In this document: in pieces, positions 3,450 to 27,763 of the stretch
Numbering within the stretch: position 1 is the stretch's first letter
How the letters are laid out: every line of letters begins with the position of its first letter
NCBI GenBank assembly: GCA_048938445.1
Contig: JBHLME010000020.1
Span: 1 to 44,058 of the forward strand
Direction: 5' to 3'
DNA length: 44,058 bases
Source of the DNA: Promethearchaeota archaeon
GTDB lineage: Archaea; Asgardarchaeota; Lokiarchaeia; Sigyniarchaeales; SOKP01
Program-made: the position numbers and the translations under genes
Notes under the pieces: model-generated
Database searches by the model: none
Told to the model about the DNA's origin: nothing
What the model saw: only the letters and a program-made list of their open reading frames with translations

Positions 3450-4193
3450 CTATACTGTCTTTGTCAACTTAATTTTAGTCTTTTTTAATTCCTTCAATTT
3501 TAAATATTCTGAGTAAACATCTTGATATCCTGACTGCATTTCAGCTACGATTTGATCTAGCTCCTCAAGTGATAACGCAATTTTTAATTTCTCAATTTTT
3601 TCAGAATCATTTTGATCAATGTTAAATTTTTCAAACCATTGTTCAAGTTGTAATTCTATTTGTTTTGGAGACATTGGAGGTTTACTACAAGCAGGATCGA
3701 CAACTGAATTCCAATATTCATCACGTATATCCGAAATCCTCTCTGAAAGAGAATGACGCCAATATTGTCTTAATGGTAATTCTTCTATCCCTTCTGGATT
3801 GAACAATTCTCTTGTTTCAGGATCAAATAATTCAGGATCTGCTAGATATCTACAAATTGAGTATATAAATGAGCCATATTTATCTTCTTTAGCATATTTA
3901 GATAATTCAAAGACTTTAGTACGATGATGCATTGTGACTAAATTATCATAATAAATTCGGTCGAGGATTGTTTTCATATCAATTTCTATCAATTTATTAG
4001 ATGATTGGATTAATGCTCGGTATTCATTAAAATGTCTAATATATTCTTCATGAATTTTCTCAAATTCGGAAAAAATTGGAATAATAAATTCATCAAATAT
4101 TTTTTTATAATTTTTTTTCCTGGATTTAACTAAATACAGAGCTAATTGTGCTGAAAGCTCGACTATTGTTCCAATGAAAAGTTCTAACGCCAT
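3450..4193 (-). CDS. Hypothetical helical protein
   Basis: 247-aa ORF with normal composition; no motif recognised. Confidence 0.65.
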   Translation of the reverse strand: MALELFIGTIVELSAQLALYLVKSRKKNYKKIFDEFIIPIFSEFEKIHEEYIRHFNEYRALIQSSNKLIEIDMKTILDRIYYDNLVTMHHRTKVFELSKYAKEDKYGSFIYSICRYLADPELFDPETRELFNPEGIEELPLRQYWRHSLSERISDIRDEYWNSVVDPACSKPPMSPKQIELQLEQWFEKFNIDQNDSEKIEKLKIALSLEELDQIVAEMQSGYQDVYSEYLKLKELKKTKIKLTKTV

Positions 4194-5890: not shown

Positions 5891-6925
5891 ATGGCAAGTA
5901 GCGAACTGATTTTGGGCATGTTTTATTCAGATATAAATCATTTAATTCATGATTCCATTAAAGATTCAGAAAATTTTTCTCAAGAAAAGAGGGAGAAGGT
6001 TAGGATGCTTCCTTTTAAGTTCTTAGGACCTGTTTTTTTGACAAGTGGAAGTACGGAAGGATATCAGTGGAAAATTGATTTTATTGAATCCTCCTTATCT
6101 CTATATCAAAAACAAAATCAACATAGCAGTATGCTACAGTCATTTTTTAATCTTAATTCTGTTATAAATACTCCAAATGGTAATACGAATCTTTTTGCAC
6201 TTATTGGAACTCCACATACCGAGGACATTAAAGTCATTCAAGATAAAATGTATGATTATATTCATCCTAGTATTGAACAAGGATTATTGATAAATAAAAA
6301 AAAGTTAGGGGCCAAATTTAGAGATGCTAAGTTTATAGGAGAAGAATTAATTCGCGGTATGAATTTGATCCACTATTATTTAGGTTCTTCTCGAAAGATA
6401 TATTGGGAAGAGCAAGTAAATTATTATTGCATAGGTTTAATTGAAAGAACTTCAAGTAAAGATGATAAAAACTCATATCTTTATACTTTTGATAAGGAGG
6501 AGCCATTGAGAAAGAAATATTTATCTTCAATTCCATCCTATTATGTGATGGCGATATTACCCGATTTTTATGAAAATTTAGTTCAGGAGACCTTAGAATT
6601 ATTTGAAATAACCAATTATTACCCAAATATTAGATTTATTAAATTAAGTAACAATAAAAAGAAAGTCGTATATTTTGAGGAATTTCAAGAATTTAGAGGA
6701 GAAAAAAGAAGTCTTGGACTGATTTTAATCCAAGCTAATGAGGCATCATCAGATTCAAAAAAATTGTCCACTTATAGAAAGGAATTAAGACAAGCTCTCG
6801 ATACTAATAAAAAGGTTGAAGAACTTATAAAAAAAGTTAATTCTTACTTCAGTCTAAAAAAGTGGGGTAATAATGATGAAAATGAACTCAATAAGATCCA
6901 TAGTATTCTTGACAATAGAAATTAA
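5891..6925 (+). CDS. Hypothetical protein (possibly longin/DENN-like alpha/beta fold)
   Basis: 344-aa ORF; only weak resemblance (ILGMFYSD...LGPV). Confidence 0.6.
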   Translation: MASSELILGMFYSDINHLIHDSIKDSENFSQEKREKVRMLPFKFLGPVFLTSGSTEGYQWKIDFIESSLSLYQKQNQHSSMLQSFFNLNSVINTPNGNTNLFALIGTPHTEDIKVIQDKMYDYIHPSIEQGLLINKKKLGAKFRDAKFIGEELIRGMNLIHYYLGSSRKIYWEEQVNYYCIGLIERTSSKDDKNSYLYTFDKEEPLRKKYLSSIPSYYVMAILPDFYENLVQETLELFEITNYYPNIRFIKLSNNKKKVVYFEEFQEFRGEKRSLGLILIQANEASSDSKKLSTYRKELRQALDTNKKVEELIKKVNSYFSLKKWGNNDENELNKIHSILDNRN

Positions 6926-6946
6926 CTAACGGCTATAATTAATATC

Positions 6947-8227
6947 ATGGATGCTAAAGAATTTAAACAACATTATAGAATAAATAGGAAACAATTAATT
7001 GGTTATTATGAAAGAACAAAAAATCGACTTCACGATAAAGATGAAATCGAGGTAATCGCTAATTTTTTAAAACATCAAGCCATAATTGAATTAAATCTCA
7101 ATGAAATCACTTATATCTTAAATTATATTGCTAAACTACTAAAAAAAGATAAAAGTATCATGGATTTTTCCCTTGAATGGATACGAGCTAATGAAATTCG
7201 TCTTAAATATAAAAAATATTTAATAACTACTAGATATCCTGAGGATGATTTTACTATAGCCATTGATGATTGCATTTCTCGATTTTTCCTTGATTATGAT
7301 AAATATATTAGAGAATTTTTTACTGAGATAAAGGAACATGAACTTAGTGCATTATATAATGTATTTTTTAATCGTGCTGATGTTAAATCACGTAGCTTTG
7401 ATGAGATTTTACAATGGCATGAAGATAAAGCACCCACAATATTTGATGATGATAAAAGAATTAATACAAATATCTTCGCTTTACGTTCCGGATTGTCCCA
7501 AATTATAATGCAGGATTATCAAGATGTATTATCTTCAAGAGAAAAAGAGCAGCAAATAAAAGAAGAAAAGAGATCTAAGACCTTTAAGGATGAAGTCCGG
7601 ATAGCTGGTGAATTTCAAGGATTATTACTTGAAAGAATGATAAAAACTTATTGCATCAGTAAAAATAAAATCGCTGCTAAAGAAATCGAAAATGTGGTTT
7701 CCCAATTTTTAACATCTTATTTCAAATTTGGTGTTTTTTATGATTATGATGATTTTAAGGATCAATTAATCCTTGCTTTCGCACGAGACTTACACGAAGG
7801 ATTGACTCCTGCTTATAAAAGAAAATTTATGATAGAAGAATTAAAAGAGCTGGTAATGGATACAATGAATGAATTTCGAGCTATTAATAAAATTAAGGTT
7901 CTCGATGGTTCTGCATGGAAAAATGATATATCAAAATATCTCAAGAAATTCTTAATTGTTTTTACTGATAATCTCTTCGAACCTAAATCTAAACTAATTA
8001 AACCTGCCAAATTAAGACCAGTTGCTCAAGAAATTTTAGAAAAGGAAGAAGGCCCTGACTTTAGGGCGTTATTTGACCTAAATCTTGAAATTGAAGAGTA
8101 TAGAGTGAAATTAGAAGCGTCTTTAGAAGATTCTGGATATGGATTTGTTAAAAAACAAAGCATCATAAGATCAAAAATTCAAGAATTTAGGATGGAAAAA
8201 AGAAGAAATATGATGAAAAAATCTTAA
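6947..8227 (+). CDS. Hypothetical all-helical protein
   Basis: 426-aa ORF, 21 nt after the previous gene, probably co-transcribed. Confidence 0.65.
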   Translation: MDAKEFKQHYRINRKQLIGYYERTKNRLHDKDEIEVIANFLKHQAIIELNLNEITYILNYIAKLLKKDKSIMDFSLEWIRANEIRLKYKKYLITTRYPEDDFTIAIDDCISRFFLDYDKYIREFFTEIKEHELSALYNVFFNRADVKSRSFDEILQWHEDKAPTIFDDDKRINTNIFALRSGLSQIIMQDYQDVLSSREKEQQIKEEKRSKTFKDEVRIAGEFQGLLLERMIKTYCISKNKIAAKEIENVVSQFLTSYFKFGVFYDYDDFKDQLILAFARDLHEGLTPAYKRKFMIEELKELVMDTMNEFRAINKIKVLDGSAWKNDISKYLKKFLIVFTDNLFEPKSKLIKPAKLRPVAQEILEKEEGPDFRALFDLNLEIEEYRVKLEASLEDSGYGFVKKQSIIRSKIQEFRMEKRRNMMKKS

Positions 8228-8334
8228 GATTATAATATTAATGACCGATTTCTTGATTTAGATTTTCATCAATTTGCTAAACCTAATATTTTTTAACCAT
8301 TTTTAATGATTATATCTATAAAGAAATGCATTAT

Positions 8335-8419
8335 GCGGGAATTGCCAAGTTTGGTCAAAGGCGCTGGACTCAGAATCCAGTCTCGTAGGAGTTCGGGGGT
8401 TCAAATCCCCTTTCCCGCA
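8335..8419 (+). tRNA. tRNA-Leu (anticodon CAG), intronless, no encoded CCA
   Basis: Acceptor GCGGGAA/TTCCCGC + discriminator A; anticodon arm CTGGA-CTCAGAA-TCCAG; long variable arm; T arm GGGGG-TTCAAAT-CCCCT. Confidence 0.97.
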
Positions 8420-8510
8420 TTTAATTAAAAAGCACGTTAAAGATTAGATAGTAAATGCTATATTGAATTCAAGTTTTTATTAAATATAATTCTAATTTGG
8501 AGTAATTAAC

Positions 8511-13011: not shown

Positions 13012-13899
13012 TTAAGAAATAAATCCACTACTTCTTAAACCTCTTGTAAGCCATTCCAATTGTAATTCTAATCCCCCCAAGTGCTCTTTTGTAAAAATTT
13101 TAGAATTTGGAATGAAAGTATCGAAATATTGTGAAGCAATATAATTCATCGAAGAATCTTCATTATACCATTTGATTATTGCATATTTTGTTTGAAAATG
13201 TAGGTCTTCCATTTCATTTAGTATTCTATCGCATTCTTCACCCGCCCAGACACCATAATGCGCTAAAGAAATAGAATCATATTTATCGCGTAATTCTCTC
13301 AATTTTTGAAATGACTTAAGAACTTCTGGTTCATAAAAATCGGATGGCATAAAAGTAGGTTGAAAGGTATCATAATCGAGTCTATCAATTACAGTGTCTC
13401 CAACAAAAATGTTTTTATTTTTGGAATCTAAGAGAGCAATTGAATCCATGGTATGTCCAAAGAAATTCAGAACTTCTAATTTTAAACCGTTTAAATCAAT
13501 AATATCACCTTCTTTTAATGGGGTTACATCAAGCACGGGATCAACTCTAGTATCAAATAAACTATTTATTTTATCTGGATTTTTTAAATTATCAATTGCT
13601 TTTTCAGAAGCTAAGAATTCAACATCAATATCTTTCATTGCTTTCTTTATCTTTTCTGCTCCCTGGAAATGGTCCCAATGACTATGTGTAAAAAAAATTT
13701 TATGAATCGGAAAAATATTCAATTCTTGTAACTTTTTTATAATCTTTCTTGCAGAATACCCCGCAGAAGTGTCAATCATCATTCTAAGACCGTCATTTTC
13801 AATCACGTAGACAGACATTGTTCCATTCAATCCAAACAATAACCCATCAATAAGATAAGTATTATCGTTAAATTTTCCATCAGAATTTATGAAAACCAT
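13012..13899 (-). CDS. Metallo-beta-lactamase-fold hydrolase (paralog 1)
   Basis: THSHWDH, GHT, FVGD, AHYG. Confidence 0.92.
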   Translation of the reverse strand: MVFINSDGKFNDNTYLIDGLLFGLNGTMSVYVIENDGLRMMIDTSAGYSARKIIKKLQELNIFPIHKIFFTHSHWDHFQGAEKIKKAMKDIDVEFLASEKAIDNLKNPDKINSLFDTRVDPVLDVTPLKEGDIIDLNGLKLEVLNFFGHTMDSIALLDSKNKNIFVGDTVIDRLDYDTFQPTFMPSDFYEPEVLKSFQKLRELRDKYDSISLAHYGVWAGEECDRILNEMEDLHFQTKYAIIKWYNEDSSMNYIASQYFDTFIPNSKIFTKEHLGGLELQLEWLTRGLRSSGFIS

Positions 13900-14045: not shown

Positions 14046-14933
14046 TTAAGAAATAAATCCACTTGCCTTTAAGCCATAAATGAGCCACTTTAATTGCATT
14101 TGCAATCCTTTCAAGTTATCTCTTCTATAATTTCTAGAATTTGGGATAAATTTATCATAGTATTTTGAAGCAATATATTCCACAGAAGGATTTTCCTCAT
14201 ACCATTTAATTATCGAATCTTTTGTTTTAAAATGTAGGTCTTCCATCTCATCTAATATTCGATCGCAATCCTCATCCATCCAGACTCCATAATGAGCTAA
14301 TGAAATAGAGTTAATCTTTTCTCTCATATCCCTTAATTTTTGAAATGTTTTTAAGATCTCAGCTTCATTAAAATCTGTTGGCATAAATGTGGGTTGAAAA
14401 GTTTCATAATTCACTCTGTCTATAATAGCATCTCCTACGAAAATATTTTTATTCTTAGAATCAAAAATCGCAATTGAATCCATTGTATGGCCAAAAAAAT
14501 TTAACACTTCTAAATTTAGACCATTTAAATCAATGATATCTCCTTCTTTTAAAGAGGTAACATCTTCAACGGGATCAACAGTATGTTCAAACGCCGAATT
14601 AATTCTATCAGGATTATGTAAATTGGGTATAGCCTTTTCAGACGCCAGAACTTCAATATCGGTTTCTTTCATTAAATTTTTTAATAGATTTACACCTTGA
14701 ATGTGATCCATATGAGAATGTGTTAATAGAATCTTATTTATGGGAAATAAGTTCAATTCTTTTAATTTTTTGACGATTATATTAGTTGCATTGTCTGATG
14801 CTGTATCAATTAACATTCGCATCCCATTATTCTCAATTACATACATAGAATAAAGTTTTTCTATTCTAAATAACAATCCATCAATAAGATAAGAATTATC
14901 ATTAAATTTACCTTCTGAATATATGAAAACCAT
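14046..14933 (-). CDS. Metallo-beta-lactamase-fold hydrolase (paralog 2)
   Basis: THSHMDH, GHT, FVGD, AHYG; same 295-aa length as its neighbour. Confidence 0.92.
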   Translation of the reverse strand: MVFIYSEGKFNDNSYLIDGLLFRIEKLYSMYVIENNGMRMLIDTASDNATNIIVKKLKELNLFPINKILLTHSHMDHIQGVNLLKNLMKETDIEVLASEKAIPNLHNPDRINSAFEHTVDPVEDVTSLKEGDIIDLNGLNLEVLNFFGHTMDSIAIFDSKNKNIFVGDAIIDRVNYETFQPTFMPTDFNEAEILKTFQKLRDMREKINSISLAHYGVWMDEDCDRILDEMEDLHFKTKDSIIKWYEENPSVEYIASKYYDKFIPNSRNYRRDNLKGLQMQLKWLIYGLKASGFIS

Positions 14934-15066
14934 TATATCACACTAAAATTATTATAAAGTTAATATTCTTTTTAGATAAAGTTAATTTCTTAATTAAAAA
15001 ATATTTTTGTGAACATTTTAAGGTATTCAAGATCTCTGCGATAAGTATAAGCAAACCAGATTTTTT

Positions 15067-15082
15067 ACAAAAAATTTAAAAT
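15067..15082 (+). promoter_or_regulatory. Putative BRE/TATA promoter for the leader-cimA transcript
   Basis: A-rich ACAAAAAA followed by TTTAAAA (15075-15081), about 26-32 nt upstream of ATG 15107, consistent with a leaderless start. Confidence 0.45.
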
Positions 15083-15106
15083 GTTTGAAACCAATGTATA
15101 ATTAAT

Positions 15107-15175
15107 ATGAAACAAAAAATAATTCCAAGCATATGTATTATAGCTAGTATCATTATTGGGATTATTATTATTTAA
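15107..15175 (+). CDS. Putative Ile-rich leader peptide MKQKIIPSICIIASIIIGIIII
   Basis: ATG..TAA, 22 codons, 12 Ile (8 ATT, 3 ATA, 1 ATC), no Leu/Val/Phe; immediately upstream of cimA. Confidence 0.7.
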   Translation: MKQKIIPSICIIASIIIGIIII

Positions 15176-15182
15176 TTTCATA

Positions 15183-15244
15183 AAAGAAATTTTAAACTCT
15201 TTTAACCTTTCTTTTCTTAACGTTTCTGGGTTTAAAATTTCTTT
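15183..15244 (+). promoter_or_regulatory. Long hairpin between the leader ORF and cimA (candidate attenuator structure)
   Basis: AAAGAAATTTTAAAC (15183-15197) and GTTTAAAATTTCTTT (15230-15244) form a perfect 15-bp inverted repeat, plus U.G and C-G pairs; 28-nt pyrimidine-rich loop. Confidence 0.7.
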
Positions 15245-15284
15245 GTTCAAGATAAAATAAAAACAGTGGAGTGTGAGAAAAGTA

Positions 15285-16883
15285 ATGGCCGAAAAAAAAG
15301 TGTATATTTATGATGCAACCTTGAGAGAGGGTAGTCAGAAAACGGGAATTTCGTTTTCAATGGAGGATAAATTTAGAATTATTGAAAGACTGATTCAAGA
15401 CCTTCACATCCCAATGATTGAGGCAGGATGGCCAGGATCAAATCCTAAAGATATTGATCTCTTTCAAAAAATTAAAGAAGTAGGACTGAATGGAACGAAT
15501 ATTTACGCTTTTGGGTCAACTCGTCGTAAAGACAGTTGTGCAGAAGATGATCCTAGTATTCAAGCAATCATTGATGCGGAAGTAAAAGGAGCAACTATTT
15601 TTGGGAAATCATGGGATTTACACGTTGAAACTGCCTTAGAAACTACACTTGAAGAGAATTTACTAATGATTCAAGATACAATTGAATGTTTAAAAAACAA
15701 TAAAATTGAGGTAATTTATGATGCTGAACATTTTTTTGATGGATATAAGAATAATAAAGAATACACACTGAAATGTATAGAAACGGCTAAAAACGCTGGA
15801 GCCTCTTGGATAACTTTATGCGATACAATTGGAGGAATTTTACCTCATGAACTAAAACCAATCATTTCTGAAGTAAAAAGCTGCGTTGGTAATGTCCCTT
15901 TAGGAATCCATGCTCATAATGATTCTGGAATGGCAAATGCAATTGCTCTTGAAGCTTATCTTCAAGGTGTCGAAATGATCCAAGGAACATTAAATGGATT
16001 TGGGGAAAGATGTGGAAATACTGATCTAACAACAATCTTACCAGTATTAAAATTAAAAATGAATGTTGATTGCATAAGTGATCATGATTTACAAAATTTA
16101 ACAGAAGTCTCTCACTTCATTTATGAAATGGCAAATTTACCTGGAGCACCGGACCAACCATTTGTAGGAAAAAATGCATTTTCTCATAAAGCCGGCATGC
16201 ATATTTCTGCAATGTTAAAGAATTTACGAACATATGAACACATAAATCCTGATGTAGTTGGTAATACTCGAGATATAAAAGTATCGGAATTGGCGGGGAA
16301 GAGCTCAGTCCTACACATGGCAGAGAAGTTCAAGCTTCCTTTAACAGCTGACAATCCAAAAGTAAAAGCCATTCTTGATGTGTTGAAGGAGAAAGAGAAT
16401 CAAGGATATTCTTTTGAAGGTGCTGAAGGTTCTTTAGAGATTTTGATGCGTAGTATGGACATGAGTATTCAAGATCCAAATTATTACAGGAATAAGTTTT
16501 TTAACTTAGAGGGTTTTAGGGTTTTAACTGAAATGTACAAGGATACATTGTTATCAGAAGCTACAATTAAAGTAAAAGTAGGAAATGACCATTTTCATAC
16601 TGCAGCTGAAGGAAATGGTCCTGTAAATGCTTTAGATAATGCTCTTAAGAAAGCTTTAGTGTACTTTTACCCTAGTATAAAAGAAATCGATTTATCTGAT
16701 TTTAAAGTTAGAATTATCAATCAAGCGGGTACTGCATCAGTCGTGAGAGTATTAGCAGAAACTCATGATAATGAGGGAGCATGGGGCACGATTGGAGCTC
16801 ATGAAAACATTATTGTTGCTTCTTGGGATGCTTTAGTAGATTCATATGTTTACAAGTTATTGAAGAATAAAGCAAATTGGTAA
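15285..16883 (+). CDS. cimA: Citramalate synthase (LeuA/CimA family); alternative GTG start at 15273
   Basis: YDATLREGSQ, EAGWPGSNPKD, IFGKSWDLHV, YDAEHFFDG, HAHND, GERCGN and a C-terminal regulatory domain (GNGPVNALD); signature of the bacterial-type CimA clade. Confidence 0.88.
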   Translation: MAEKKVYIYDATLREGSQKTGISFSMEDKFRIIERLIQDLHIPMIEAGWPGSNPKDIDLFQKIKEVGLNGTNIYAFGSTRRKDSCAEDDPSIQAIIDAEVKGATIFGKSWDLHVETALETTLEENLLMIQDTIECLKNNKIEVIYDAEHFFDGYKNNKEYTLKCIETAKNAGASWITLCDTIGGILPHELKPIISEVKSCVGNVPLGIHAHNDSGMANAIALEAYLQGVEMIQGTLNGFGERCGNTDLTTILPVLKLKMNVDCISDHDLQNLTEVSHFIYEMANLPGAPDQPFVGKNAFSHKAGMHISAMLKNLRTYEHINPDVVGNTRDIKVSELAGKSSVLHMAEKFKLPLTADNPKVKAILDVLKEKENQGYSFEGAEGSLEILMRSMDMSIQDPNYYRNKFFNLEGFRVLTEMYKDTLLSEATIKVKVGNDHFHTAAEGNGPVNALDNALKKALVYFYPSIKEIDLSDFKVRIINQAGTASVVRVLAETHDNEGAWGTIGAHENIIVASWDALVDSYVYKLLKNKANW

Positions 16884-16912: not shown

Positions 16913-18061
16913 TTAAAAATAGAGCGAAAAATGTTTTTTTATCAATTCTTCTACTCCTTTGAATTCCGAAATATCAATTAAATTATTTAAATCTTGTATT
17001 TGTATCAATTCTTCCTTAAATAACGATTCAAATTCCATTGCGAACTCATGCATCATTGAAGATAAGAAATCATTTTTCTTTTTTGTTGTTAGAAGCACTG
17101 CAAATCCAAATTCATTATTATAATCAACAATTATATCCGAACTTTTAGTTTTTAACACGTTAATTTGATTGTTTGTATCAATAAACTCTGCTACTATATG
17201 GTTTAATCCAATCAAAATATTTCCCCATATCGAGGATTCGGTTTTAGGTGTTTCATATTCAAATCTGTATGAATAGAGCTGAACTCCAGATTTATGATAA
17301 ATATCAATCGAATAGATCATATTAGTTAAATTTGTAATTGATATTTTACGAGTTTTCATTAACCGAATCAATAATAATAATAATACAAATTGTACTAGAT
17401 AAAAATGTATATCTCTCATAACCGTTAATTCTAACAAGAGATAAAAAATATAGAATAAAAATGGAATACAGAGTAATATGTTAATAAATAAAAGAGATCT
17501 ACTCAAACTTTTATCTCTTGAATAGAGATGAATTAATGAACCATAATAAAGAAAGAAAGAGATGAAATAGATACAAGTCAAAAATAAAATTATCTTAGAT
17601 ACTAAATTAAATGAGTAGTTGATAATCGTGAGATCTAGTATTATAAAAGGAGGTAATTCAATTGAATTAATTGTAATTTGAATTGAATCTTGTATGATTA
17701 GTGTCCCTATTAATAAACCAAATAAAAACATAAAAAGAATATACGTAATGAGATCTATCTTGGTATAGTGTTTTATTGATGAGATTCCTATTAATAAAAG
17801 TCCAAAATTCAAAAATTCAAAAAGAATTGAAAGTTTAAACAGGAAAATGTTTAAATTTCCAGGAAAGAGGATAATAAGTGAAAAAATAAAAAGACTTGGA
17901 AAAATAATACTGCTTAATATGAAGGATACGCGGGTGATTAAGATTTTATAATTAAAAAAACCCTTTTTATATTTAGGTTTAATAACAAAAGGTAAGCTAA
18001 AACTCAAGATAATTGAAATAGTGTAAATTATAACATATAGAATAAAAAATAAAGCGGACAT
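16913..18061 (-). CDS. Multi-TM (about 7) protein fused to a C-terminal longin-like domain
   Basis: Hydrophobic N-terminal 240 aa; C-terminal IYHKSGVQLYSYRF...ILIGLNHIVAEF...FAVLLT...F...F. Confidence 0.7.
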   Translation of the reverse strand: MSALFFILYVIIYTISIILSFSLPFVIKPKYKKGFFNYKILITRVSFILSSIIFPSLFIFSLIILFPGNLNIFLFKLSILFEFLNFGLLLIGISSIKHYTKIDLITYILFMFLFGLLIGTLIIQDSIQITINSIELPPFIILDLTIINYSFNLVSKIILFLTCIYFISFFLYYGSLIHLYSRDKSLSRSLLFINILLCIPFLFYIFYLLLELTVMRDIHFYLVQFVLLLLLIRLMKTRKISITNLTNMIYSIDIYHKSGVQLYSYRFEYETPKTESSIWGNILIGLNHIVAEFIDTNNQINVLKTKSSDIIVDYNNEFGFAVLLTTKKKNDFLSSMMHEFAMEFESLFKEELIQIQDLNNLIDISEFKGVEELIKKHFSLYF

Positions 18062-18070: not shown

Positions 18071-19192
18071 TTATCTTTTAATATTTTTCTTCTGTATATA
18101 TGGTTTAAAATACTCATTAATAAGTTCTTTGGTATTTTTAAATGCAGAAATATCTATTAACAAACTAGCTTTTTCAAGTTCTCTTAATGTTTCCTTATTA
18201 GTTTCATTAAATTTTTCCATCAGATTTTTCACAGCTTTCGTAATTATATGATTTTTTTGGTTTGTGATTAATAGGACGGCATAACCGTAATCAATGTCGT
18301 ATTGAAATACTAAATCATGATTTTCTAATTTAATAAGATTAAGTTGATCTTTTTTATCGAGGAATTTTGAAAGAATATGGTTAATCCCAATTAAAATAGA
18401 TCCTTTTAATAGTGTTTCATCAGTTTCTTGTCCTGTTTTAAAATTATAGGAAAAAAGTAGAATACCACTTTTATGAAATATTATGAATTCGTTAATTTCA
18501 TTAGATATTGCAATAAATGCATGAGGATTTTTAACAATCACATAAAGGTTCATTACAGAGCTAAGGATATAAAATAAATTACTTATATCCGCAAATAAGA
18601 AAGTTTGGGTGATTGTATAGTATGTATAAGTAAAAATGATGAAACCCAATAGGAAAAGAGATAGGAACAAATATTTTTCTATTTTTTGGTCAGGTATATT
18701 CGCTCGACTTCTAATATGAACATGAATGATAAAAAACAGGATTAAAAAATCGAAAAATACAATAAAAATCAACAAAAATGGATTATGAAATATATAAACA
18801 TAAAAAGTGCTTGTAGGAATAATTTCTACTGAATCTTGAAAACTCATTAAACTTATTATGATACCAGCAATCAGACAGAGAATTAAAAGAGGAATTTTTT
18901 CTATTTTATAACTTTCTAACGTTAAACCATAAATTATTAATAATAAACTCATATCTATCATTCTCATGATGATTGAAAGCTTCCAAAATAAAAGTGCATA
19001 CTCATAAGATATAAGAATTTCTGTAGACAAATAAAAAAACAAATAAAAAAGAATGCCATAAAACAAATAGGTAAAAATAAACAAGATAAAATTAGGTGAA
19101 GTATAAAGCTTTTTATAATTAATGATAATATAGGATATTGAAACTATAGATAAAATGAATGAGATTGTTAAGGGGATTATGCCAATTATCAT
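18071..19192 (-). CDS. Multi-TM (about 7) protein fused to a C-terminal longin-like domain (paralog)
   Basis: IFHKSGILLFSYNF...ILIGINHILSKF...YAVLLIT; 9-nt gap to the next gene. Confidence 0.7.
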   Translation of the reverse strand: MIIGIIPLTISFILSIVSISYIIINYKKLYTSPNFILFIFTYLFYGILFYLFFYLSTEILISYEYALLFWKLSIIMRMIDMSLLLIIYGLTLESYKIEKIPLLILCLIAGIIISLMSFQDSVEIIPTSTFYVYIFHNPFLLIFIVFFDFLILFFIIHVHIRSRANIPDQKIEKYLFLSLFLLGFIIFTYTYYTITQTFLFADISNLFYILSSVMNLYVIVKNPHAFIAISNEINEFIIFHKSGILLFSYNFKTGQETDETLLKGSILIGINHILSKFLDKKDQLNLIKLENHDLVFQYDIDYGYAVLLITNQKNHIITKAVKNLMEKFNETNKETLRELEKASLLIDISAFKNTKELINEYFKPYIQKKNIKR

Positions 19193-19873: not shown

Positions 19874-21760
19874 TTGCTATATTTGATGATAGACTTTATT
19901 CAATTCCTTAAAAAACGAGAAGTTATAGCAACTTTAATTGAATATTATGATCTTAAAGATAAGAAGAGCATTTTATTACTAAATAAAATCATTGAAGATT
20001 TAGTAGAATTAAATAATATTGATGATGAATATGACATTATTGGAAATCTTTATGAAAAAAGAAAAAATCAAGCTGAAAGGAAAGAGTTAGGTGAATTTTA
20101 TACTCCTAAATTAATTGTGAATTATATTTTAGATTCTATTGGTTATAAATTTGAAAATAATATTGATGAGCTAAAAATAATCGATATTAGCTGTGGTTCA
20201 GGAAGTTTTTTAGTAGAAGCAGTAAAAAGAATTAAACTTAGATGGAAAAATAAGTTCAAAATTAGAAATTTTTCAGAATTATCAATTGCTAATGCCATCA
20301 AGATCATTGAGAATATCCAAAATAATATTTTTGGAATGGATGTCAATCCTATTGCAGTTATTTTATGTCAAATTAATTTTTATCTCGCTTTATCTGAAAT
20401 TATAAATCAAATAATGCAGCAGATAGAGGGATATAATTTACCAATATTTAATATTTCCGATATTTCTGCATTGAAAATTATTCCTTCGGGTGATTTTGAC
20501 TTTGTCGTAGGAAATCCTCCTTATTTATTCATGAGAGACATTCCAATTAGTCAAAGAGAAGCTATTGAAAGCTTACAACTGGAAACAAATACAGGACAAT
20601 ATGATTATTATCAAATTTTCATGGAATTAGGAACTAAACATCTAAAAAATCATGGATTTTTGGGATATATTGTTCCAGATTCTTTTTTAACATTATCAAA
20701 CAGAAGAATTATCAGGAAATACATTTATAATAATACTAAGATAAAGGAATTGTTCCATATAGGAGAAAAATTTGATGAACCAATAGTTTCTAATATAATA
20801 ATTATATTACAAAAGGAAAATAATAATATAGAAAGAGAAATGAACTATATTTCGATTAATGATACAGGAAATGAGAACAAAAAACCAAAAACAATTATTC
20901 AGAAATATATTAGAAATTGGAATTATGATTATTTGATTCACCTAGATGATGAAGATTTAAACCTTTTAACTCATTTAACAGAAGATTTCTTAAAATTGGG
21001 TGATATAATGAATTTAGATGGATATCAAATCGAATTGTCTCGAGGAGTCGAATTAGGAAAAGAAGGAAAAGTCATTTATTGTAAAAAATGTGATAAATTT
21101 TTGCCACTTCCAAGAAATGAACTTAAATGTTCTCGATGTAATACAATTTTAGATTTAAATTCTATGGAAAAGATAATCCATAAGTCTTTAAAAAAAGTGA
21201 ATCAGAATTATAAACCATTCATTTATTCAATAGATCAATATATTGTTAAAGAATATAGATATATTGATATTACCAAAAATGGTATCAATTATAAAGATTT
21301 TAATCTCTATAAAGATCGCATTATCATCCGGCAAATTAGTAAAAATAATAGAATTTGTGCAACATACTGTAAATCATTGTCTCTTACTTCACAATCTTTC
21401 TATAATATGAAAATAATTCAGTCTCCTATCTCAGAATTTAATAATTATTATTTATTAGGATTGATTAATTCAAACTTGTTGACATATTTTTTTATCAAAT
21501 CGTTTGGATCTTATAAAAAGCTCTTTCCAAGAATATTGATTGAAAAGATTAAGGAATTTCCAATAAAAATTCCAAAAAATAAAGAAGATATCAAATACTC
21601 ATTTAAAATAATTGAAAAAGTAAAATTCTTATTAAATTCTAAAGAAAGAGATAAAGCTCTTAAAATAGAAAAGCAAAAAGAAATAGACGATTTGGTTTTT
21701 CAACTATACCAGATACCAAATCATCTCTCAAAAAAAATATGCAATTACATCCAAGATTGA
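19874..21760 (+). CDS. N6-adenine DNA methyltransferase (gamma class, TaqI/Eco57I-like); start probably ATG 19886
   Basis: GEFYTP, DISCGSGSFL, VVGNPPY, C-terminal TRD with LLGLINS. Confidence 0.88.
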   Translation: MLYLMIDFIQFLKKREVIATLIEYYDLKDKKSILLLNKIIEDLVELNNIDDEYDIIGNLYEKRKNQAERKELGEFYTPKLIVNYILDSIGYKFENNIDELKIIDISCGSGSFLVEAVKRIKLRWKNKFKIRNFSELSIANAIKIIENIQNNIFGMDVNPIAVILCQINFYLALSEIINQIMQQIEGYNLPIFNISDISALKIIPSGDFDFVVGNPPYLFMRDIPISQREAIESLQLETNTGQYDYYQIFMELGTKHLKNHGFLGYIVPDSFLTLSNRRIIRKYIYNNTKIKELFHIGEKFDEPIVSNIIIILQKENNNIEREMNYISINDTGNENKKPKTIIQKYIRNWNYDYLIHLDDEDLNLLTHLTEDFLKLGDIMNLDGYQIELSRGVELGKEGKVIYCKKCDKFLPLPRNELKCSRCNTILDLNSMEKIIHKSLKKVNQNYKPFIYSIDQYIVKEYRYIDITKNGINYKDFNLYKDRIIIRQISKNNRICATYCKSLSLTSQSFYNMKIIQSPISEFNNYYLLGLINSNLLTYFFIKSFGSYKKLFPRILIEKIKEFPIKIPKNKEDIKYSFKIIEKVKFLLNSKERDKALKIEKQKEIDDLVFQLYQIPNHLSKKICNYIQD

Positions 21761-21938: not shown

Positions 21939-22511
21939 ATGAAAAGGACTGCTGAGGTTTCAAGAAAAACAGCTGAAACGGATATTACGATTAAATTGAA
22001 TTTAGATGGCTCTGGAAAATGTGAAATTAACACGGGATTCTCATTCATGGATCACATGTTAACATTATTAGCACGTCATTCAGGAGTAGATTTAGTCGTA
22101 AAAGCCGGTGGAGATTTGACACATCACGTTATAGAAGATATTGGAATTGTGCTAGGAGAATGCTTTGAGAAGGCTATAGGAGATAAAAAAGGAATAAATA
22201 GATATGGCACCGCATTTATTCCTATGGATGAATCTCTTGCAAGATGTACAATAGATTTTAGTGGAAGAAAAGCTTTAGCATTAGATCTTAAATTAAATGA
22301 ATGTGATATAGAGGATGTCGCTGTTGAAGATATAAAACATTTTCTAAATTCTTTTGCTGAGAATTCTAAGATAAATCTTCACTTGAACGTTTTATATGGA
22401 GAAGATCAGCACCATAAAACTGAAGCTGCTTTTAAAGCACTGGCAAGAGCTATTAAAGAATCAATTACAATTGTTTCAGATAAAATACCTTCAACTAAAG
22501 GTGTTTTGTAA
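21939..22511 (+). CDS. hisB: Imidazoleglycerol-phosphate dehydratase
   Basis: RKTAETDI, FMDHML, HHVIED, PMDESLA, HHKTEAAFKA, IPSTKGVL. Confidence 0.97.
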   Translation: MKRTAEVSRKTAETDITIKLNLDGSGKCEINTGFSFMDHMLTLLARHSGVDLVVKAGGDLTHHVIEDIGIVLGECFEKAIGDKKGINRYGTAFIPMDESLARCTIDFSGRKALALDLKLNECDIEDVAVEDIKHFLNSFAENSKINLHLNVLYGEDQHHKTEAAFKALARAIKESITIVSDKIPSTKGVL

Positions 22512-22547: not shown

Positions 22548-25500
22548 ATGAATTTAAAGAAGCTTGAATTAACTTTTATTCCATCAGAATATTGGAATGA
22601 ATCACCTAGTAAATTCGAATTACTATCTAAAGGAAAAAAACTTCCTAAAAATGCTCATTTTTTTCTTTTTTGGATTCCTTCAATTAATTCTGAACAGGAA
22701 CTAATTAATCAAATCTTAAGTGTATTTCCAAAAATTCCTGCTTCTAAACTATTATCATGTAAGATAAATCTAGCTCTACCTTTACCTTTTCTAAAAATAA
22801 AAAGTAATAATGATGATAATAATAATAAATATTTTGGCATAACTACTGTTTTAGGAAAAATTGTTCCAATCTCCCCTGCAATAAAATTACTTTATAATTT
22901 AGAATTAATTGAAAGTCAAGATCGTAGTATAACACATTATAGCAATTCAATAAAAACCTGGGGTTTTTTAACCAAGTTGATATTTGAATTATTAAATAAA
23001 GGACAATTTGTTCCTATTCTAAAACCTCTAGATGGAAAATTGTTTGAAGCACAATGGCAATTATTATTAACTTCACAAAATGATAATGAACGTTTTCAGT
23101 CAATTTTAAAAAGTAGCGACTGGAAATCATTTAATTTACCTATAAACTTCATATCTAATGATGGAACTTTAATAACAGATGGTCTTTGGCACCCATCTTA
23201 TATTTTTACTAATTATATTGATAGTATCGGAGATTATGTAATCCGTTCAATCCTTAAAAAAACTAAATTCTCAACTTTTAAAGAATTTTATAGTACTGAA
23301 ATCAAAAAAGAATCAGATCCATCATATAAAATAGGATGGGATTATAAATTTCTTAAAAGTCTAATAAAAAATGATCCAAGATTTGAAATAAAAGAATATT
23401 ACGAAACAGTAATTCCTACTATAATTAAAAATTGGGTTCAATCAGCTAGAGGTTTTACCTTTAAACACGGTTCATTTTTCACTTTAAAGTTACAATATCC
23501 TAAAAAATCAGAAGAGGAATGGCCATTAGTATTTTTTATTTCATTACAAGAAGATTCAACTCTAATTTCTCTAAAAGAAATTTGGGAAGGAAATATTAAA
23601 AAAGAATCTAAGTTTCAAAATTTATTTGATAACGATGAATCATATATAGAAACAATACTAAGAGCACTTGGTACCATCTCTAAGATATTTCCACCAATAA
23701 AACGGATGTTAGAAGAAAAATTTCCCGGTGAAATAAAATTAACTTCAACAGAAGTAATAGAATTTCTAAAATATCCAAAAGATTTATTGATACAGAGTGG
23801 TTTTAACGTGATTTTACCCGATGCATTTTCAATTGGGGGTGCCCAGCGTTTAACAGCAAGATTACTAATTCGTTCAGGGGATACAGAGAAATATGGATCT
23901 AAATCAACTCAATCCATACCTTCTTTATTTGATATGAGTTCAATGTTAGAATTTAAATGGGAAGCAAACCTTGGAGGAGAAAAAATATCTGATGATGAAT
24001 TTAAAAAATTAATAAATTCTAACCAACCACTCATTAATTTAAGAGATAAGTGGATATTAATTGATCAATATGATCTTGAAGAATTACGTAATGCTAAAGA
24101 TTTAGACTTGGATAATTACGTGGATGCTTTAAAATTAGGATTAACGGGAAGTATTCAATTAGGAGAAAATGGGAATAGATATGAAGTAATTGTAGAGGGT
24201 GTATTTGGAGAAATTATTGATCAATTAAAATCAATTGATACTTTCGAGAAAATACCCCCTCCCTCGTCCTTCCATGGAACATTAAGACCTTATCAAGAAA
24301 TAGCATTATCTTGGATGGGAAATATGTGTAAATTTAATTTTGGTCTATGTTTAGCTGATGATATGGGTCTTGGAAAAACTATTCAAGTCATTGCTTTACT
24401 ATTACATTTAAAAGAAATTTACCCAAATGAGCAATTTAAATTTTTGATCGTATGTCCGACATCCTTACTATTCAATTGGAGCAGAGAGTTGAACAAGTTT
24501 GCTCCTGATTTAAGAATTATAATACATCATGGATCAAATCGGTTAAAAGATGCAATTAAAATTACTAAAAATTTAGAAAATTATGAAATATTATTGACTT
24601 CCTATGGAACTATTAGAAATGACATAGAATTTCTCCAAATCATACCGTTTAGCGGTATCATAATTGATGAATCTCAAAATATTAAAAATTATTCTTCACA
24701 ACAGACCCAATCAATACTCAAGCTTCAAGGGAATTTTAGAATAGGATTAAGTGGTACCCCACTTGAAAATAGATTAATGGAACTGTGGACCCTATTTGAA
24801 TTTTTAAATCCAGGTCTTTTAGGGACTAGAACTGAATTTCAAAAAAACTATATTATTCCAATTGAACGGTTTCAAGATGAAGAAGTGATAGATAAGCTTA
24901 AATTGATTATATCTCCTTTCATGATGAGACGTGTTAAAACTGATAAATCTATCATCAATGATTTACCCGACAAAAATGAAATGAAAATCTTTATTGAATT
25001 AACAGAACAACAAGTTATTTTATATCAAGAAATTGTTGATAACACGTTTAAAGAGTTTGATAGGATAAAATTTGATAATCAAAAGAAGAGAGGTCTCATT
25101 TTAGGATTATTAGTAAAATTAAAACAAATTTGCAATCATCCATTTCAATATTTAAAAGAGGATCTAAAAAGCATTAATAATGAAGGAGGTTTGGAAAATT
25201 TTTTATCCCAATCTCAAAAAGTAGAAAGACTTTTAGAAATTACAGAAGAAGTAATAGCAAATGGTGAAAAAATATTGATTTTTACTCAATTTAGACAAAT
25301 GGGAGATATCTTATATAAAGTGCTTTCTTTAAAATATGATTTTACCATTCTTTATTTTCATGGAAGTGTTCCTGAAAAGAAAAGGAGAGAAATTGTTGAT
25401 GAATTTCAATCAGATGAAATCAATAGTTCACCCATTTTGATTTTATCTTTAAAAGCAGGAGGTACGGGATTAAATTTAACTCAAGGAACTACTGTAATAC

Positions 25501-25745
25501 ATATAGATCGATGGTGGAACCCTGCAGTGGAAGATCAAGCAACTGATCGTGCATATCGTATTGGACAAAAATCAAAAGTAAACGTTTATAAATTTATTAC
25601 GATAGGCACTTTAGAAGAAAAAATTGATCTTTTACTAGAAGAAAAACGTGATTTAGCGGATAAAATAGTCTCTTCTAAGGGAGAATCGTGGATTTCTGAT
25701 TTAGATGAAGAAAAACTAAAAAATTTATTATTATTAAGTAATTAA
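22548..25745 (+). CDS. SNF2-family helicase/ATPase
   Basis: LRPYQ, LADDMGLGKT, DESQNIKN, SGTPLEN, SLKAGGTGLNL, WWNPAVEDQATDRAYRIGQ. Confidence 0.96.
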   Translation: MNLKKLELTFIPSEYWNESPSKFELLSKGKKLPKNAHFFLFWIPSINSEQELINQILSVFPKIPASKLLSCKINLALPLPFLKIKSNNDDNNNKYFGITTVLGKIVPISPAIKLLYNLELIESQDRSITHYSNSIKTWGFLTKLIFELLNKGQFVPILKPLDGKLFEAQWQLLLTSQNDNERFQSILKSSDWKSFNLPINFISNDGTLITDGLWHPSYIFTNYIDSIGDYVIRSILKKTKFSTFKEFYSTEIKKESDPSYKIGWDYKFLKSLIKNDPRFEIKEYYETVIPTIIKNWVQSARGFTFKHGSFFTLKLQYPKKSEEEWPLVFFISLQEDSTLISLKEIWEGNIKKESKFQNLFDNDESYIETILRALGTISKIFPPIKRMLEEKFPGEIKLTSTEVIEFLKYPKDLLIQSGFNVILPDAFSIGGAQRLTARLLIRSGDTEKYGSKSTQSIPSLFDMSSMLEFKWEANLGGEKISDDEFKKLINSNQPLINLRDKWILIDQYDLEELRNAKDLDLDNYVDALKLGLTGSIQLGENGNRYEVIVEGVFGEIIDQLKSIDTFEKIPPPSSFHGTLRPYQEIALSWMGNMCKFNFGLCLADDMGLGKTIQVIALLLHLKEIYPNEQFKFLIVCPTSLLFNWSRELNKFAPDLRIIIHHGSNRLKDAIKITKNLENYEILLTSYGTIRNDIEFLQIIPFSGIIIDESQNIKNYSSQQTQSILKLQGNFRIGLSGTPLENRLMELWTLFEFLNPGLLGTRTEFQKNYIIPIERFQDEEVIDKLKLIISPFMMRRVKTDKSIINDLPDKNEMKIFIELTEQQVILYQEIVDNTFKEFDRIKFDNQKKRGLILGLLVKLKQICNHPFQYLKEDLKSINNEGGLENFLSQSQKVERLLEITEEVIANGEKILIFTQFRQMGDILYKVLSLKYDFTILYFHGSVPEKKRREIVDEFQSDEINSSPILILSLKAGGTGLNLTQGTTVIHIDRWWNPAVEDQATDRAYRIGQKSKVNVYKFITIGTLEEKIDLLLEEKRDLADKIVSSKGESWISDLDEEKLKNLLLLSN

Positions 25746-25754: not shown

Positions 25755-26708
25755 GTGATGAAACTGGATAATAGAAAAAAGGAATTTTTGGAAGGTCGTA
25801 AACTTAGAAGGAATAAAACTGAACGTCCAACGTTTAAAACAGAACGAGAAAAACAAGAGACCCGAGAGGAAGTAGAACAAATTAAAAGAAACTTATTAAA
25901 TTTTGCATCAACCTCGTGGGGAAAAAAATGGATTAAATCAAATTTAAAAATTGGTAGACCTTTTAGGATGCAGAGAGGCATTGAATATGTAAAAGATCAA
26001 ACAAGAATCGATAATATTTCTATTGGGGACGGTCAAATATTTGGTACAGTCCAAGGTACAGCACCAACACCTTATCGTGTAAAAATAATTTTTGATACAA
26101 TACCAGAAGAAGTATGGCAAAAGATAATCATAGATCTTACTAAAAAGACGCTGAATCTCATAGAACTACTAAATGGAATAATGCCTGAAGATATCAATGA
26201 TTTTTTTTCTAAACATGGATTCAATCTCTTCCCTGATGCTGCAAAAGGTCTAAATGCTACCTGTTCCTGCCCGGATACTGCAATTCCATGTAAGCATATT
26301 GCCGCGATTATTCTATATCTCGCTAGAGTATTAGATTTTAATCCATTTTTATTATTGGAACTACATGGGAAATCTAAGAGAGAAATTTTCAATGACCTTA
26401 AATTCTCAAAATTAGATGAGGAGTTTAAGATAAAAACTATACAAGAGATGAACGTTTCAGAAGAAAATGTTAATTTCGATTTCAATAAACCAAAAATTTT
26501 GATTCAAGAACTGACTTCTGGTCAAATAAATCAAGAAAAAGAATTTAAAATAGGATTTAAATATAAAAAACCAGGTAAAGTTATAGAGATATTGGAAAAT
26601 TTGGGGATGCCACAGACGATTGATAATAAGGCATTTGAAATTGTCTTGAAATCAATATATAACTCCATTAAATTACGGACGTATGAAATGGTCTTAGGAA
26701 TTGAATGA
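25755..26708 (+). CDS. SWIM zinc-finger protein (partner of SNF2)
   Basis: CSCPD..IPCKH; WGKKW, RG..Y, VQGT..PY. Confidence 0.92.
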   Translation: MMKLDNRKKEFLEGRKLRRNKTERPTFKTEREKQETREEVEQIKRNLLNFASTSWGKKWIKSNLKIGRPFRMQRGIEYVKDQTRIDNISIGDGQIFGTVQGTAPTPYRVKIIFDTIPEEVWQKIIIDLTKKTLNLIELLNGIMPEDINDFFSKHGFNLFPDAAKGLNATCSCPDTAIPCKHIAAIILYLARVLDFNPFLLLELHGKSKREIFNDLKFSKLDEEFKIKTIQEMNVSEENVNFDFNKPKILIQELTSGQINQEKEFKIGFKYKKPGKVIEILENLGMPQTIDNKAFEIVLKSIYNSIKLRTYEMVLGIE

Positions 26709-26818: not shown

Positions 26819-27763
26819 ATGTTAGAAGAAAAACTTAAAACAGTTCTGATAAGTTACATAAATGAAGTTGAAGGTATATTAGCCGTTTCAATTTGCGATC
26901 GAGACGGATTAATTATTACTTCCGAAGGAAGGAGTGATATAGGGGATGACATAATAGGTGGTCTCTCTGCAATTTTGGACAGTTATATTGATAGAATTAA
27001 AGCCGAATTTGAAACCCAATCAAATTTTTGTAATATTACCAATATGGGTGACAAAAAATTTATCTATTGTTCTATGGGACCTAATTCAATATTAACAACA
27101 ATATCTGAACCAGATACTTCTGATGTTACATTGCGCGTTCTTTCAGAATATGTTGCGGAAAAAATCGAATTAATACTTAATAAAGAAGAGGTATCGTTGG
27201 AAATACCAGATATTGTAAAATCTTTATCAAAAACAAGAGAAGGTAAATTTCCTCCAGGAAAATTCTCTATTAAATTAATATTAACTGGAGATTTCAAGGT
27301 TGGAAAAACTTCTTTAATCAAACGTTTTGTAGAAGATACATTTCATGAGAATTATATCTCAACAATTGGAGTTCAAATTTCAAAAAAGTCGATTAATCTA
27401 GGGTCAAATACAGAGATGAATTTCATAATATGGGACATTGGAGGGCAGAAAACGATGGTTGCGCCTAATTTTTATAGAGGTGCCAATGCAGCTTTCATCG
27501 TAGTAGACAGAACTCGTGAAGAAACCCTTACAAACGTGAAAAGATGGCAAGAGGAGATTACTCGAAAGGTGTCTCAAAAAATCCCCGTCGTTATCGTGGG
27601 AAATAAATCTGATTTGATTGATAAGATTGTCCTTACCAAAGATGATATTAAAACCCTTGCTGATCAACATAACTTTCATTATATTCTTACAAGTGCAAAA
27701 ACAGGAGAAAATGTTAACGGGGCATTTTTTCATATTGCATTTAAAATGATCGAATTATTTTAA
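26819..27763 (+). CDS. Roadblock/LC7 domain fused to a Rab-like small GTPase
   Basis: N-terminal VEGILAVSICDRDGLII; G1 GDFKVGKT, G2 STIG, G3 WDIGGQ, G4 NKSD, G5 SAK. Confidence 0.92.
   Translation: MLEEKLKTVLISYINEVEGILAVSICDRDGLIITSEGRSDIGDDIIGGLSAILDSYIDRIKAEFETQSNFCNITNMGDKKFIYCSMGPNSILTTISEPDTSDVTLRVLSEYVAEKIELILNKEEVSLEIPDIVKSLSKTREGKFPPGKFSIKLILTGDFKVGKTSLIKRFVEDTFHENYISTIGVQISKKSINLGSNTEMNFIIWDIGGQKTMVAPNFYRGANAAFIVVDRTREETLTNVKRWQEEITRKVSQKIPVVIVGNKSDLIDKIVLTKDDIKTLADQHNFHYILTSAKTGENVNGAFFHIAFKMIELF

Follow-up and report, generated by a model that had tools for sequence, protein, structure and literature searches.

The window analyzed here is a stretch of 44,058 nucleotides (nt) from a Promethearchaeota archaeon (assembly GCA_048938445.1, contig JBHLME010000020.1, positions 1 to 44,058 of the forward strand). 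It holds cimA, the gene for citramalate synthase, and directly before it on the same strand lies an upstream open reading frame (uORF) of 22 codons, 12 of which specify isoleucine; this uORF and its relation to cimA are the subject of what follows. The product of cimA carries out the committed reaction in the synthesis of isoleucine from pyruvate. The window gene scores 674 bits against the TIGR00977 citramalate synthase model, for which the cut-off is 450. The closest relatives of the window CimA are 70–86% identical to it, and because those with a named source are Lokiarchaeota or Promethearchaeota, the Asgard assignment of the DNA holds. The intergenic region that carries the uORF (14934-15284; 351 nt) is bordered by a divergent MBL-fold hydrolase gene (14046..14933, − strand) and by cimA (+ strand), and has a GC content of 20.8%, compared with 28.7% for the whole window. 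An earlier reading, made from the letters of the DNA alone (the sequence-only reading), had described a 22-codon open reading frame (ORF) with 12 isoleucine codons and four ATT codons at its end, about 110 nt before a cimA gene on the same strand and about 26–32 nt after a TATA-like box. Reading the window at 15107..15175 confirmed the ORF, the spacer from its stop codon to the cimA ATG at 15285 measures 109 nt, the TIGR00977 score bears out the identity of the gene, and a TATA-like octamer is found where it had been placed. The features that frame the locus are as follows.

15075..15082, + strand: TATA-like octamer TTTAAAAT after a run of A, at −32..−25 of the uORF ATG; candidate promoter of a leaderless uORF transcript.
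15107..15175, + strand: leader ORF (uORF), 22 codons from ATG to TAA, encoding MKQKIIPSICIIASIIIGIIII; its codons are ATG AAA CAA AAA ATA ATT CCA AGC ATA TGT ATT ATA GCT AGT ATC ATT ATT GGG ATT ATT ATT ATT TAA.
15268..15277, + strand: Shine-Dalgarno-like GGAG..GTGAG before cimA, of which GTGAG is kept in L001 and L003, the two Lokiarchaeal loci compared below.
15285..16883, + strand: cimA, citramalate synthase, 532 amino acids including a C-terminal LeuA_dimer domain (TIGR00977, PF00682, PF08502).

The isoleucine codons of the uORF comprise eight ATT, three ATA and one ATC, with ATT at each of the final four positions, and the peptide contains no leucine, valine or phenylalanine. Among the 296 ATG-initiated ORFs of 15–60 codons found in the six frames of the window, the uORF is the sole one with at least 40% isoleucine; its share is 55%, compared with 35% for the runner-up and a mean of 12% (standard deviation 7.6%). 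Across the 32 larger ORFs of the window, isoleucine accounts for 11.4% of 13,178 codons. An ORF arisen by chance within AT-rich DNA is the simplest alternative, given that ATT and ATA triplets are plentiful in the intergenic region, and 4117 of 5000 dinucleotide-preserving shuffles of that region indeed held some ATG-initiated ORF of at least 15 codons. None of the 5000, however, produced such an ORF with at least 45% isoleucine; four reached 40%, and the maximum was 42%. In a wider set of 582 short ATG-initiated ORFs drawn from the window and the three other Asgard cimA loci, the uORF shows the strongest enrichment for any single amino acid (binomial 1.9e-6), followed by its own antisense mirrors, which are enriched in asparagine, and then by its homolog in L003. 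Comparable isoleucine density among random short ORFs, which the sequence-only reading had named as a finding that would speak against a leader, is thus not common by any of these three measures. The ATT run was too short for a tandem-repeat finder to count it as an array. A further suggestion, that the three ATA codons would sample the modified tRNA-Ile2, found no support on comparison: ATA makes up 3 of the 12 isoleucine codons in the uORF versus 487 of 1497 in the window genes, and the orthologous uORFs have one ATA each.

The uORF is not confined to the window. We kept 80 cimA loci from at least 600 matched stretches (599 confirmed) in genome contigs; these loci are mostly bacterial, and the Asgard ones are L001, L002 and L003. 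The L002 contig breaks off inside cimA and has no upstream DNA, and the leader comparison is accordingly between the window, L001 and L003. Among the loci kept, both of the other Lokiarchaeal cimA loci with upstream DNA (2/2) carry a homologous isoleucine-rich uORF at the same position, as the sequence-only reading had anticipated for a functional leader:

L001, 3828..3884: uORF encoding MNIKIIPLEIILIIIGII, with isoleucine at 10 of 18 positions, 116 nt before cimA.
L003, 3808..3879: uORF encoding MNGKIIPREFGIGIILIIIGIII, with isoleucine at 11 of 23 positions, 121 nt before cimA.

Both the ATG and the TAA of the uORF fall within invariant alignment blocks, and the three ORFs of 22, 18 and 23 codons (window, L001 and L003, respectively) keep their frame despite insertions and deletions. 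The variable middle differs in sequence between the three genomes and is still about half isoleucine, and the residues other than isoleucine vary freely. In ungapped columns the uORFs are 70–91% identical and the spacers 64–78%, in comparison with 45–52% at the third codon positions of cimA and 46–50% in the unrelated upstream flanks. Because identity in the uORF and spacer exceeds both of these references, the leader is, by this sequence comparison, under purifying selection approximately as strong as that on the first codon positions of cimA. For scale, the CimA proteins of L001 and L003 are 72–73% identical to that of the window and 84% identical to each other, and the conserved downstream neighbor, a membrane protein, is 38% identical at the protein level to its L001 ortholog. 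With the uORF kept in both orthologous loci well above the neutral level and its isoleucine content unmatched in the shuffles, chance as its origin is excluded, and the probability that we leave to it is negligible.

Together with the uORF, the whole 180-nt leader is conserved in the three diverged genomes, and conservation sets in at the TATA-like box before the uORF. Further upstream, different divergent genes are found in the three genomes; downstream of cimA, gene order is conserved. Because conservation starts at this box and the upstream genes differ, the uORF lies on the cimA side of the synteny break and travels with cimA. The sequence-only reading had also raised the idea of a decayed signal peptide from a longer gene, and this explanation fell away, as the stop codon is kept in all three genomes and no longer homolog was found. 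A protein search of a representative library with a 32-amino-acid ORF from L001 returned two unrelated, long low-complexity repeat proteins; as ORFs this short are rarely predicted, the lack of small homologs carries little weight. At the Aigarchaeota locus L073, cimA is not preceded by a comparable ORF.

The signals around the uORF suggest how its RNA may be made and read. In L001 and L003, TATTTAAG occupies positions −33..−26 of the uORF ATG, and in each of the three genomes 24–25 nt separate the TATA-like box from the ATG. This distance is consistent with a leaderless start, and we infer that the transcript begins at or beside the uORF AUG, 25–26 nt after the box. No Shine-Dalgarno-like motif was found before the uORF, a condition that it shares with 27 of the 32 window ORFs; the available text of a review describes most ORFs of a Lokiarchaeal genome as likewise lacking the motif (PMC7531240). 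Of the 32 annotated window ORFs, only 5 have a Shine-Dalgarno-like motif within 17 nt of the start; cimA is one of them, which would fit an internal cistron. The uORF would be translated, and cimA would be read from the same RNA by way of its Shine-Dalgarno-like motif. The core TTTAAA occurs at −33..−31 in 3 of the 32 annotated window ORFs and at −48 in two others, which are too few cases to tell which TATA-like box is used. Matches to sigma-70-type promoters within 14900-15320 were discarded as meaningless for an archaeon.

Downstream of the uORF, the leader RNA has a predicted structure that is shared by the three genomes. The RNAalifold consensus fold of the three leaders (all folds being computed at 37 °C) contains three helices, which we designate P0, P1 and B:B′, with the following elements in the window.

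15107..15112, + strand: 5′ arm of helix P0, AUGAA(A), which includes the start codon; its partner follows directly on the stop codon, and five of the six pairs are invariant in the three sequences.
15117..15128, + strand: 5′ arm of helix P1, codons K-I-I-P, AAAUAAUUCCAA; pairs with 15156-15169.
15156..15169, + strand: 3′ arm of helix P1, within the last isoleucine codons and beginning UUGGGAUUAUU; L003 has GGA for GGG, which replaces a G-U pair with an A-U pair.
15176..15181, + strand: 3′ arm of helix P0, (U)UUCAU, which is also the 6-nt spacer from the stop codon to helix B.
15182..15197, + strand: box B, AAAAGAAATTTTAAAC, the A-rich 5′ arm of a long-range helix; can also pair with the U-tract element C.
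15200..15219, + strand: U-rich block that may supply archaeal U-tract termination signals, with two T4 runs (15200-15203 and 15212-15215) and, from 15208, element C with its conserved core TTTCTTTT.
15230..15244, + strand: box B′, GTTTAAAATTTCTTT, the 3′ arm of the long-range helix; exact reverse complement of 15183-15197, containing TTTAAAAT.

Box B starts exactly 6 nt past the uORF stop in all three genomes. On nascent RNA the B:B′ helix is 16–17 bp long, with one or two G-C pairs and an energy of −15 to −17 kcal/mol, and the loop that it encloses measures from 32 nt in the window to 42 nt in L003; the 3′ side of the helix is U-rich. In L003, two B:B′ pairs are changed on both sides, from U-A to C-G and from A-U to U-A. 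For the whole structure, 94.9% of cells are paired, versus 44–58% with the partners slid by 1–3 columns. The B and B′ arms are the only exact copies in the window, and matches with two mismatches number 4, compared with 2.8 expected. Pairing of box B with element C is weaker: the duplex energy of the window box B is −13.7 kcal/mol with B′ and −5.2 kcal/mol with C, and the latter pairing comes to −8.1 kcal/mol in each of L001 and L003. The spacer holds three runs of T4 or longer in the window, four in L001 and three in L003. In Rfam, the whole window gave only a tRNA at the gathering threshold, and region 15040-15300, searched at E up to 10, gave two meaningless weak matches.

A second ORF overlaps these elements in the +1 frame (15156..15260, + strand); it opens with a TTG within the last uORF codons and spans box B and the U-tracts. 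All three genomes keep this frame open, but its ends and lengths differ (34, 26 and 23 amino acids), and we rejected it as a gene and regard it as a by-product of T-rich sequence. A +1 shift on the ATT run would carry a ribosome through the helix, and re-pairing after such a shift looks poor.

The position of a translating ribosome is predicted to affect the B:B′ helix at one place only. With a footprint modeled as −15 to +13 around the A-site, a ribosome at least two codons before the stop leaves B:B′ whole, and one on the last isoleucine codon removes one or two pairs. A ribosome on the stop codon removes four or five pairs, those facing the U-run end of B′. The occupancy of B:B′ in the partition function likewise drops only with the ribosome on the stop, from 0.06 to 0.00 in the window, from 0.88 to 0.52 in L001 and from 0.94 to 0.03 in L003. 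Because only a stop-codon ribosome opens B:B′ in these models, the leader geometry distinguishes a ribosome that has reached the stop from one that is held on isoleucine codons or absent.

This geometry bears directly on the classical bacterial style of attenuation that the sequence-only reading had in mind. In such an attenuator, B:B′ and its U-run would form an intrinsic terminator, and a ribosome stalled on the last isoleucine codons would block the hairpin and allow read-through. The isoleucine run does end right before the stop and 6 nt from the helix, the sequence after the helix is U-rich (T8 in L001 and T6 in L003), and a bacterial cimA locus, L053, is built on exactly this plan. In the footprint simulations, however, a stall on the isoleucine codons leaves the helix closed, save for the one or two pairs lost at the last of them, and a helix opened only from the stop codon would turn cimA on when isoleucine is plentiful, which is the wrong sign. 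A consensus terminator scan of 14900-15320 found no terminator-like site (0) and no GC-rich terminator, and RNAalifold applied to the three leaders yielded no conserved, mutually exclusive antiterminator. Moreover, archaeal termination is described as needing no hairpins (PMC8716108, available portion). We thus consider the classical arrangement highly improbable at this locus, and this part of the sequence-only reading was not supported; the mechanism of the uORF leader is probably not the classical bacterial one.

The match between the isoleucine codons and the isoleucine pathway, together with the conserved frame and the purifying selection, supports a regulatory leader. The reading that we favor, with moderate confidence, is that the 22-codon ORF acts in cis as a ribosome-read, isoleucine-sensing leader that controls cimA. 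Ribosomes translating it would gauge how much charged tRNA-Ile is available, and the place that they reach would set the fate of the downstream leader RNA and thus the expression of cimA; cimA would in this way be switched by isoleucine supply. As to how, PMC8716108 describes archaeal terminators as U-tracts that work without a hairpin before them and aCPSF1 as binding U-tracts through its KH domains, more tightly with more U4-tracts, with a Lokiarchaeota ortholog behaving similarly. The spacer between the uORF and cimA may hold archaeal-type U-tract termination signals of this kind, which the A-rich box B would hide by pairing with C or B′. With ample isoleucine, ribosomes would reach the stop codon and their footprint would cover the first bases of B, leaving the U-tracts exposed and leading to termination before cimA, either intrinsic or aided by aCPSF1/FttA. 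With scarce isoleucine, ribosomes would stall upstream on the isoleucine codons, B would stay paired and the U-tracts hidden, and cimA would be transcribed. A ribosome at the stop would then switch cimA off, which would be the sensible sign for a biosynthetic gene. This U-tract-masking mechanism, drawn from the leader geometry and from PMC8716108, is the one that we consider likeliest, but taken by itself it is tentative, and we hold it to be possible but doubtful.

Several observations weigh against the favored reading, and some of them lend substance to two other explanations. The first concerns promoters and membrane peptides. A second TTTAAAAT lies inside B′ at −54 of cimA in both the window and L001, with the homologous octamer GTATAGAAT at −57 in L003, and membrane segments in this genome reach 10 isoleucines per 22-residue window (in 2 of the 32 annotated ORFs). 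The uORF and cimA could therefore be two independent units, the uORF being a separate gene for a membrane-inserted micropeptide that ends at the U-tracts, and cimA being transcribed from its own promoter in B′, with ribosomes on the uORF playing no part in its regulation even though the two remain neighbors. The use of B′ as the TATA box of a separate cimA promoter is the strongest rival to our interpretation. Its position has a parallel in the two window ORFs with TTTAAA at −48, the U-tracts past the uORF could serve as a terminator for the latter (compare PMC8716108, in the portion available), and the N terminus of the peptide has lysine residues followed by a hydrophobic stretch. Because genuine membrane segments here can be very isoleucine-rich, composition alone leaves room for a small membrane peptide. 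The statement in the sequence-only reading that the peptide is unlike real transmembrane helices accordingly stands only in part: the lack of leucine, valine and phenylalanine sets it apart, but its isoleucine density is approached by real membrane segments.

Other properties of the leader are hard to reconcile with two separate units. The L001 peptide has only 18 residues, with a hydrophobic run of 14 that includes a glutamate, and is too short for a membrane span. The hydrophobic residues of the uORF are almost only isoleucine, in contrast to the mixture of leucine, phenylalanine and isoleucine in the window membrane proteins (14–18%, 9–11% and 15–17%, respectively), and its other residues vary freely. 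A helix that links the 3′ flank of the uORF to the cimA-proximal region, with complementarity kept through two double changes, would be unexpected between independent units. The B′ version in L003 is poorer as a TATA-like box, and the agreement of isoleucine codons with an isoleucine-pathway gene would be a coincidence. On balance, we judge the two-unit explanation unlikely.

The second explanation treats the leader as conserved but non-coding, either as a structured 5′ untranslated region or as a DNA control region (P0, P1 and B:B′, or protein-binding inverted repeats), the frame and the isoleucine codons being a by-product of arms rich in ATT and AAT. It draws on the coincidence of the invariant peptide positions, KIIP and IGII, with the two arms of helix P1; some of what looks like coding conservation may thus be RNA structure. 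In addition, ATT repeats slip in steps of three, so that the frame would be kept for free, and the strand opposite the isoleucine codons carries an asparagine-rich mirror ORF (15065..15181, − strand; MKLNNNNPNN...) whose ATG lies opposite the conserved CAT that follows the uORF stop codon. This antisense ORF, which we rejected as a gene of its own, has an end that is not conserved and is only 12 codons long in L001. Outside the helix arms, the uORF diverges and yet remains about half isoleucine, in the frame of the conserved ATG and free of stops in all three genomes at 21% GC; both its ATG and its TAA are invariant, and 0 of 5000 shuffles came near its isoleucine content. Nor does box B recur elsewhere in the window more often than expected by chance. 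We regard a purely non-coding leader as rather improbable.

The remaining points against the isoleucine-sensing leader concern the breadth of the comparison and the RNA model, and to them belongs the lack of a GC-rich terminator and of an antiterminator given above. The comparison rests on three genomes. Covariation is thin, as both double changes occur in one lineage, and 34 of 500 shuffles equal the observed structure, a control that is weak with three sequences. Folding at 37 °C may not match the habitat of the organism, which touches the proposed mechanism as well. The U-tracts of the window are weaker (T4) than those at B′ of L001 (T8) and L003 (T6). At full-leader equilibrium, B:B′ is a minor state in the window (0.06), where a window-specific pairing of element C (15208..15222) with the GTGAG..ATG region of cimA (15273..15287) competes with it; this pairing dominates the full-leader fold and is not conserved in L001 or L003. 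We considered masking of the cimA ribosome-binding site by such pairing and rejected it, since it is found only in the window's own fold and is not conserved, and the unpaired probability of the site changes inconsistently with ribosome position. Finally, hisB (21939..22511, + strand) has no cognate histidine leader in the window, so a family of such leaders is not shown.

Leader-peptide attenuators are best known from enterobacteria, where they control ilvGMEDA, ilvBN, leu, thr, his and trp, and several of them are Rfam families. The cimA leader resembles these in that a short ORF on the same strand precedes a biosynthetic gene, is dense in codons for the end product and is followed by structured, U-rich RNA, with its stop codon near a helix. 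It differs from them in its archaeal host, in its probably leaderless start with no Shine-Dalgarno motif before the uORF, in the absence of a GC-rich terminator, a conserved antiterminator and an Rfam match, and in a helix that responds to a ribosome on the stop rather than on the regulatory codons. In the factor-dependent attenuation of Escherichia coli tnaC, a ribosome near the leader stop controls the access of Rho. The variant that we prefer for cimA would be similar in that the position of a ribosome by the stop decides the exposure of a termination signal on nascent RNA. Unlike with tnaC and Rho, the factor would be aCPSF1/FttA acting on U-tracts (PMC8716108, available portion), and the ribosome would lay the signal bare instead of covering it; the parallel is entirely inferred.

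In layout, the closest analog appears to be the mycobacterial cysteine "ribulon". According to the accessible part of its description, leaderless polycysteine short ORFs open polycistronic mRNAs before genes of cysteine metabolism, ribosome stalling is the sensor, and the ORFs act by unmasking a ribosome-binding site (bioRxiv 10.1101/834739). The cimA leader shares with these a short ORF rich in the cognate amino acid before a gene of that pathway, and a candidate leaderless start; it differs in host domain and amino acid and in having no conserved pairing of the cimA ribosome-binding site. A leader for the same gene and amino acid is found in bacteria at the Syntrophales locus L053, which alone among the 76 bacterial cimA loci kept has such an isoleucine leader ORF. 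This ORF (3822..3896) encodes MTASSIIIIGGIIRPDITGGLISA, has a Shine-Dalgarno motif before it and is followed by a 16-bp GC-rich hairpin with a U8 run (3915..3960). With this textbook isoleucine leader, cimA is leader-controlled in at least one bacterium, a precedent for the logic proposed here. Both peptides have a run of isoleucine interrupted by glycine (IIIIGGII in L053, IIIGIIII in the window), but there is no sequence similarity between the two leaders, and L053 has the classical bacterial hairpin design. An attenuator of Corynebacterium glutamicum ilvBNC was reportedly described by Morbach et al. in 2000. Its leader peptide is reported to contain branched-chain amino acid codons and to be made without a ribosome-binding site (PMC11857589). 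That system follows the bacterial three-hairpin model with an intrinsic terminator, and it is by this description only that we set it apart from the cimA leader.

Attenuation by leader peptides is a classic outcome of the coupling between transcription and translation, and to our knowledge it is documented only in bacteria. A full-text literature search, outside of which most subscription journals lie, found no report of an archaeal amino-acid-sensing leader peptide or of a leader before cimA, and archaeal ribosome-profiling papers, in the text available, mention uORFs only as possibilities (PMC11456600). The cimA leader could be the first ribosome-read amino-acid-sensing attenuator in Archaea, working through U-tracts and aCPSF1/FttA, with box B masking the signals, a completed uORF exposing them, and the level of charged tRNA-Ile being read out as premature 3′ ends. 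In this full form, the claim is speculative and we think it unlikely. Should it be true, archaea too would use the ribosome as an amino-acid sensor, and this in the lineage closest to eukaryotes, with eukaryote-like termination in place of a bacterial hairpin terminator. The leader would then offer a short, portable element for testing how translation communicates with archaeal transcription termination by way of U-tracts and aCPSF1/FttA. A search image for Asgard leaders would also follow, namely a leaderless ORF in which one amino acid abounds and whose stop codon is followed after 6 nt by a helix, and the case would indicate that regulatory information in these genomes can reside in small ORFs which gene callers overlook.

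The surroundings of the leader and cimA hold further features. Adjoining the leader on its upstream side, and divergent from it, are tandem MBL-fold metallo-hydrolase paralogs (13012..13899 and 14046..14933, − strand) that are 67% identical over 295 amino acids. In all four Lokiarchaeal loci, two genes convergent to cimA encode paralogous multi-pass membrane proteins that share 30% identity and have a soluble C-terminal part, and for which no Pfam or NCBIfam match was found. The members of the pair are located as follows.

Window, − strand: 16913..18061 and 18071..19192.
L001: 5644..6756 and 6814..7920.
L002: 1502..2617 and 2651..3748.
L003: 5641..6765 and 6831..7937.

Further along the + strand of the window, an adenine-methyltransferase-like gene (19874..21760), a gene for a 1065-amino-acid SNF2-type helicase (22548..25745) and one for a SWIM zinc-finger protein (25755..26708) resemble parts of anti-phage defense systems, and hisB sits amid these defense-like genes. 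They are followed at 26819..27763 (+ strand) by a gene for a 314-amino-acid protein with a C-terminal small GTPase domain of the Ras/Roc type, a domain that Asgard archaea commonly have. A giant ORF (38376..44057, − strand; more than 1873 amino acids) runs off the end of the window, and its sole Pfam match is to a Reelin subrepeat-B-like domain. The only RNA gene found in the window is that for tRNA-Leu(CAG), at 8334..8420 on the + strand.

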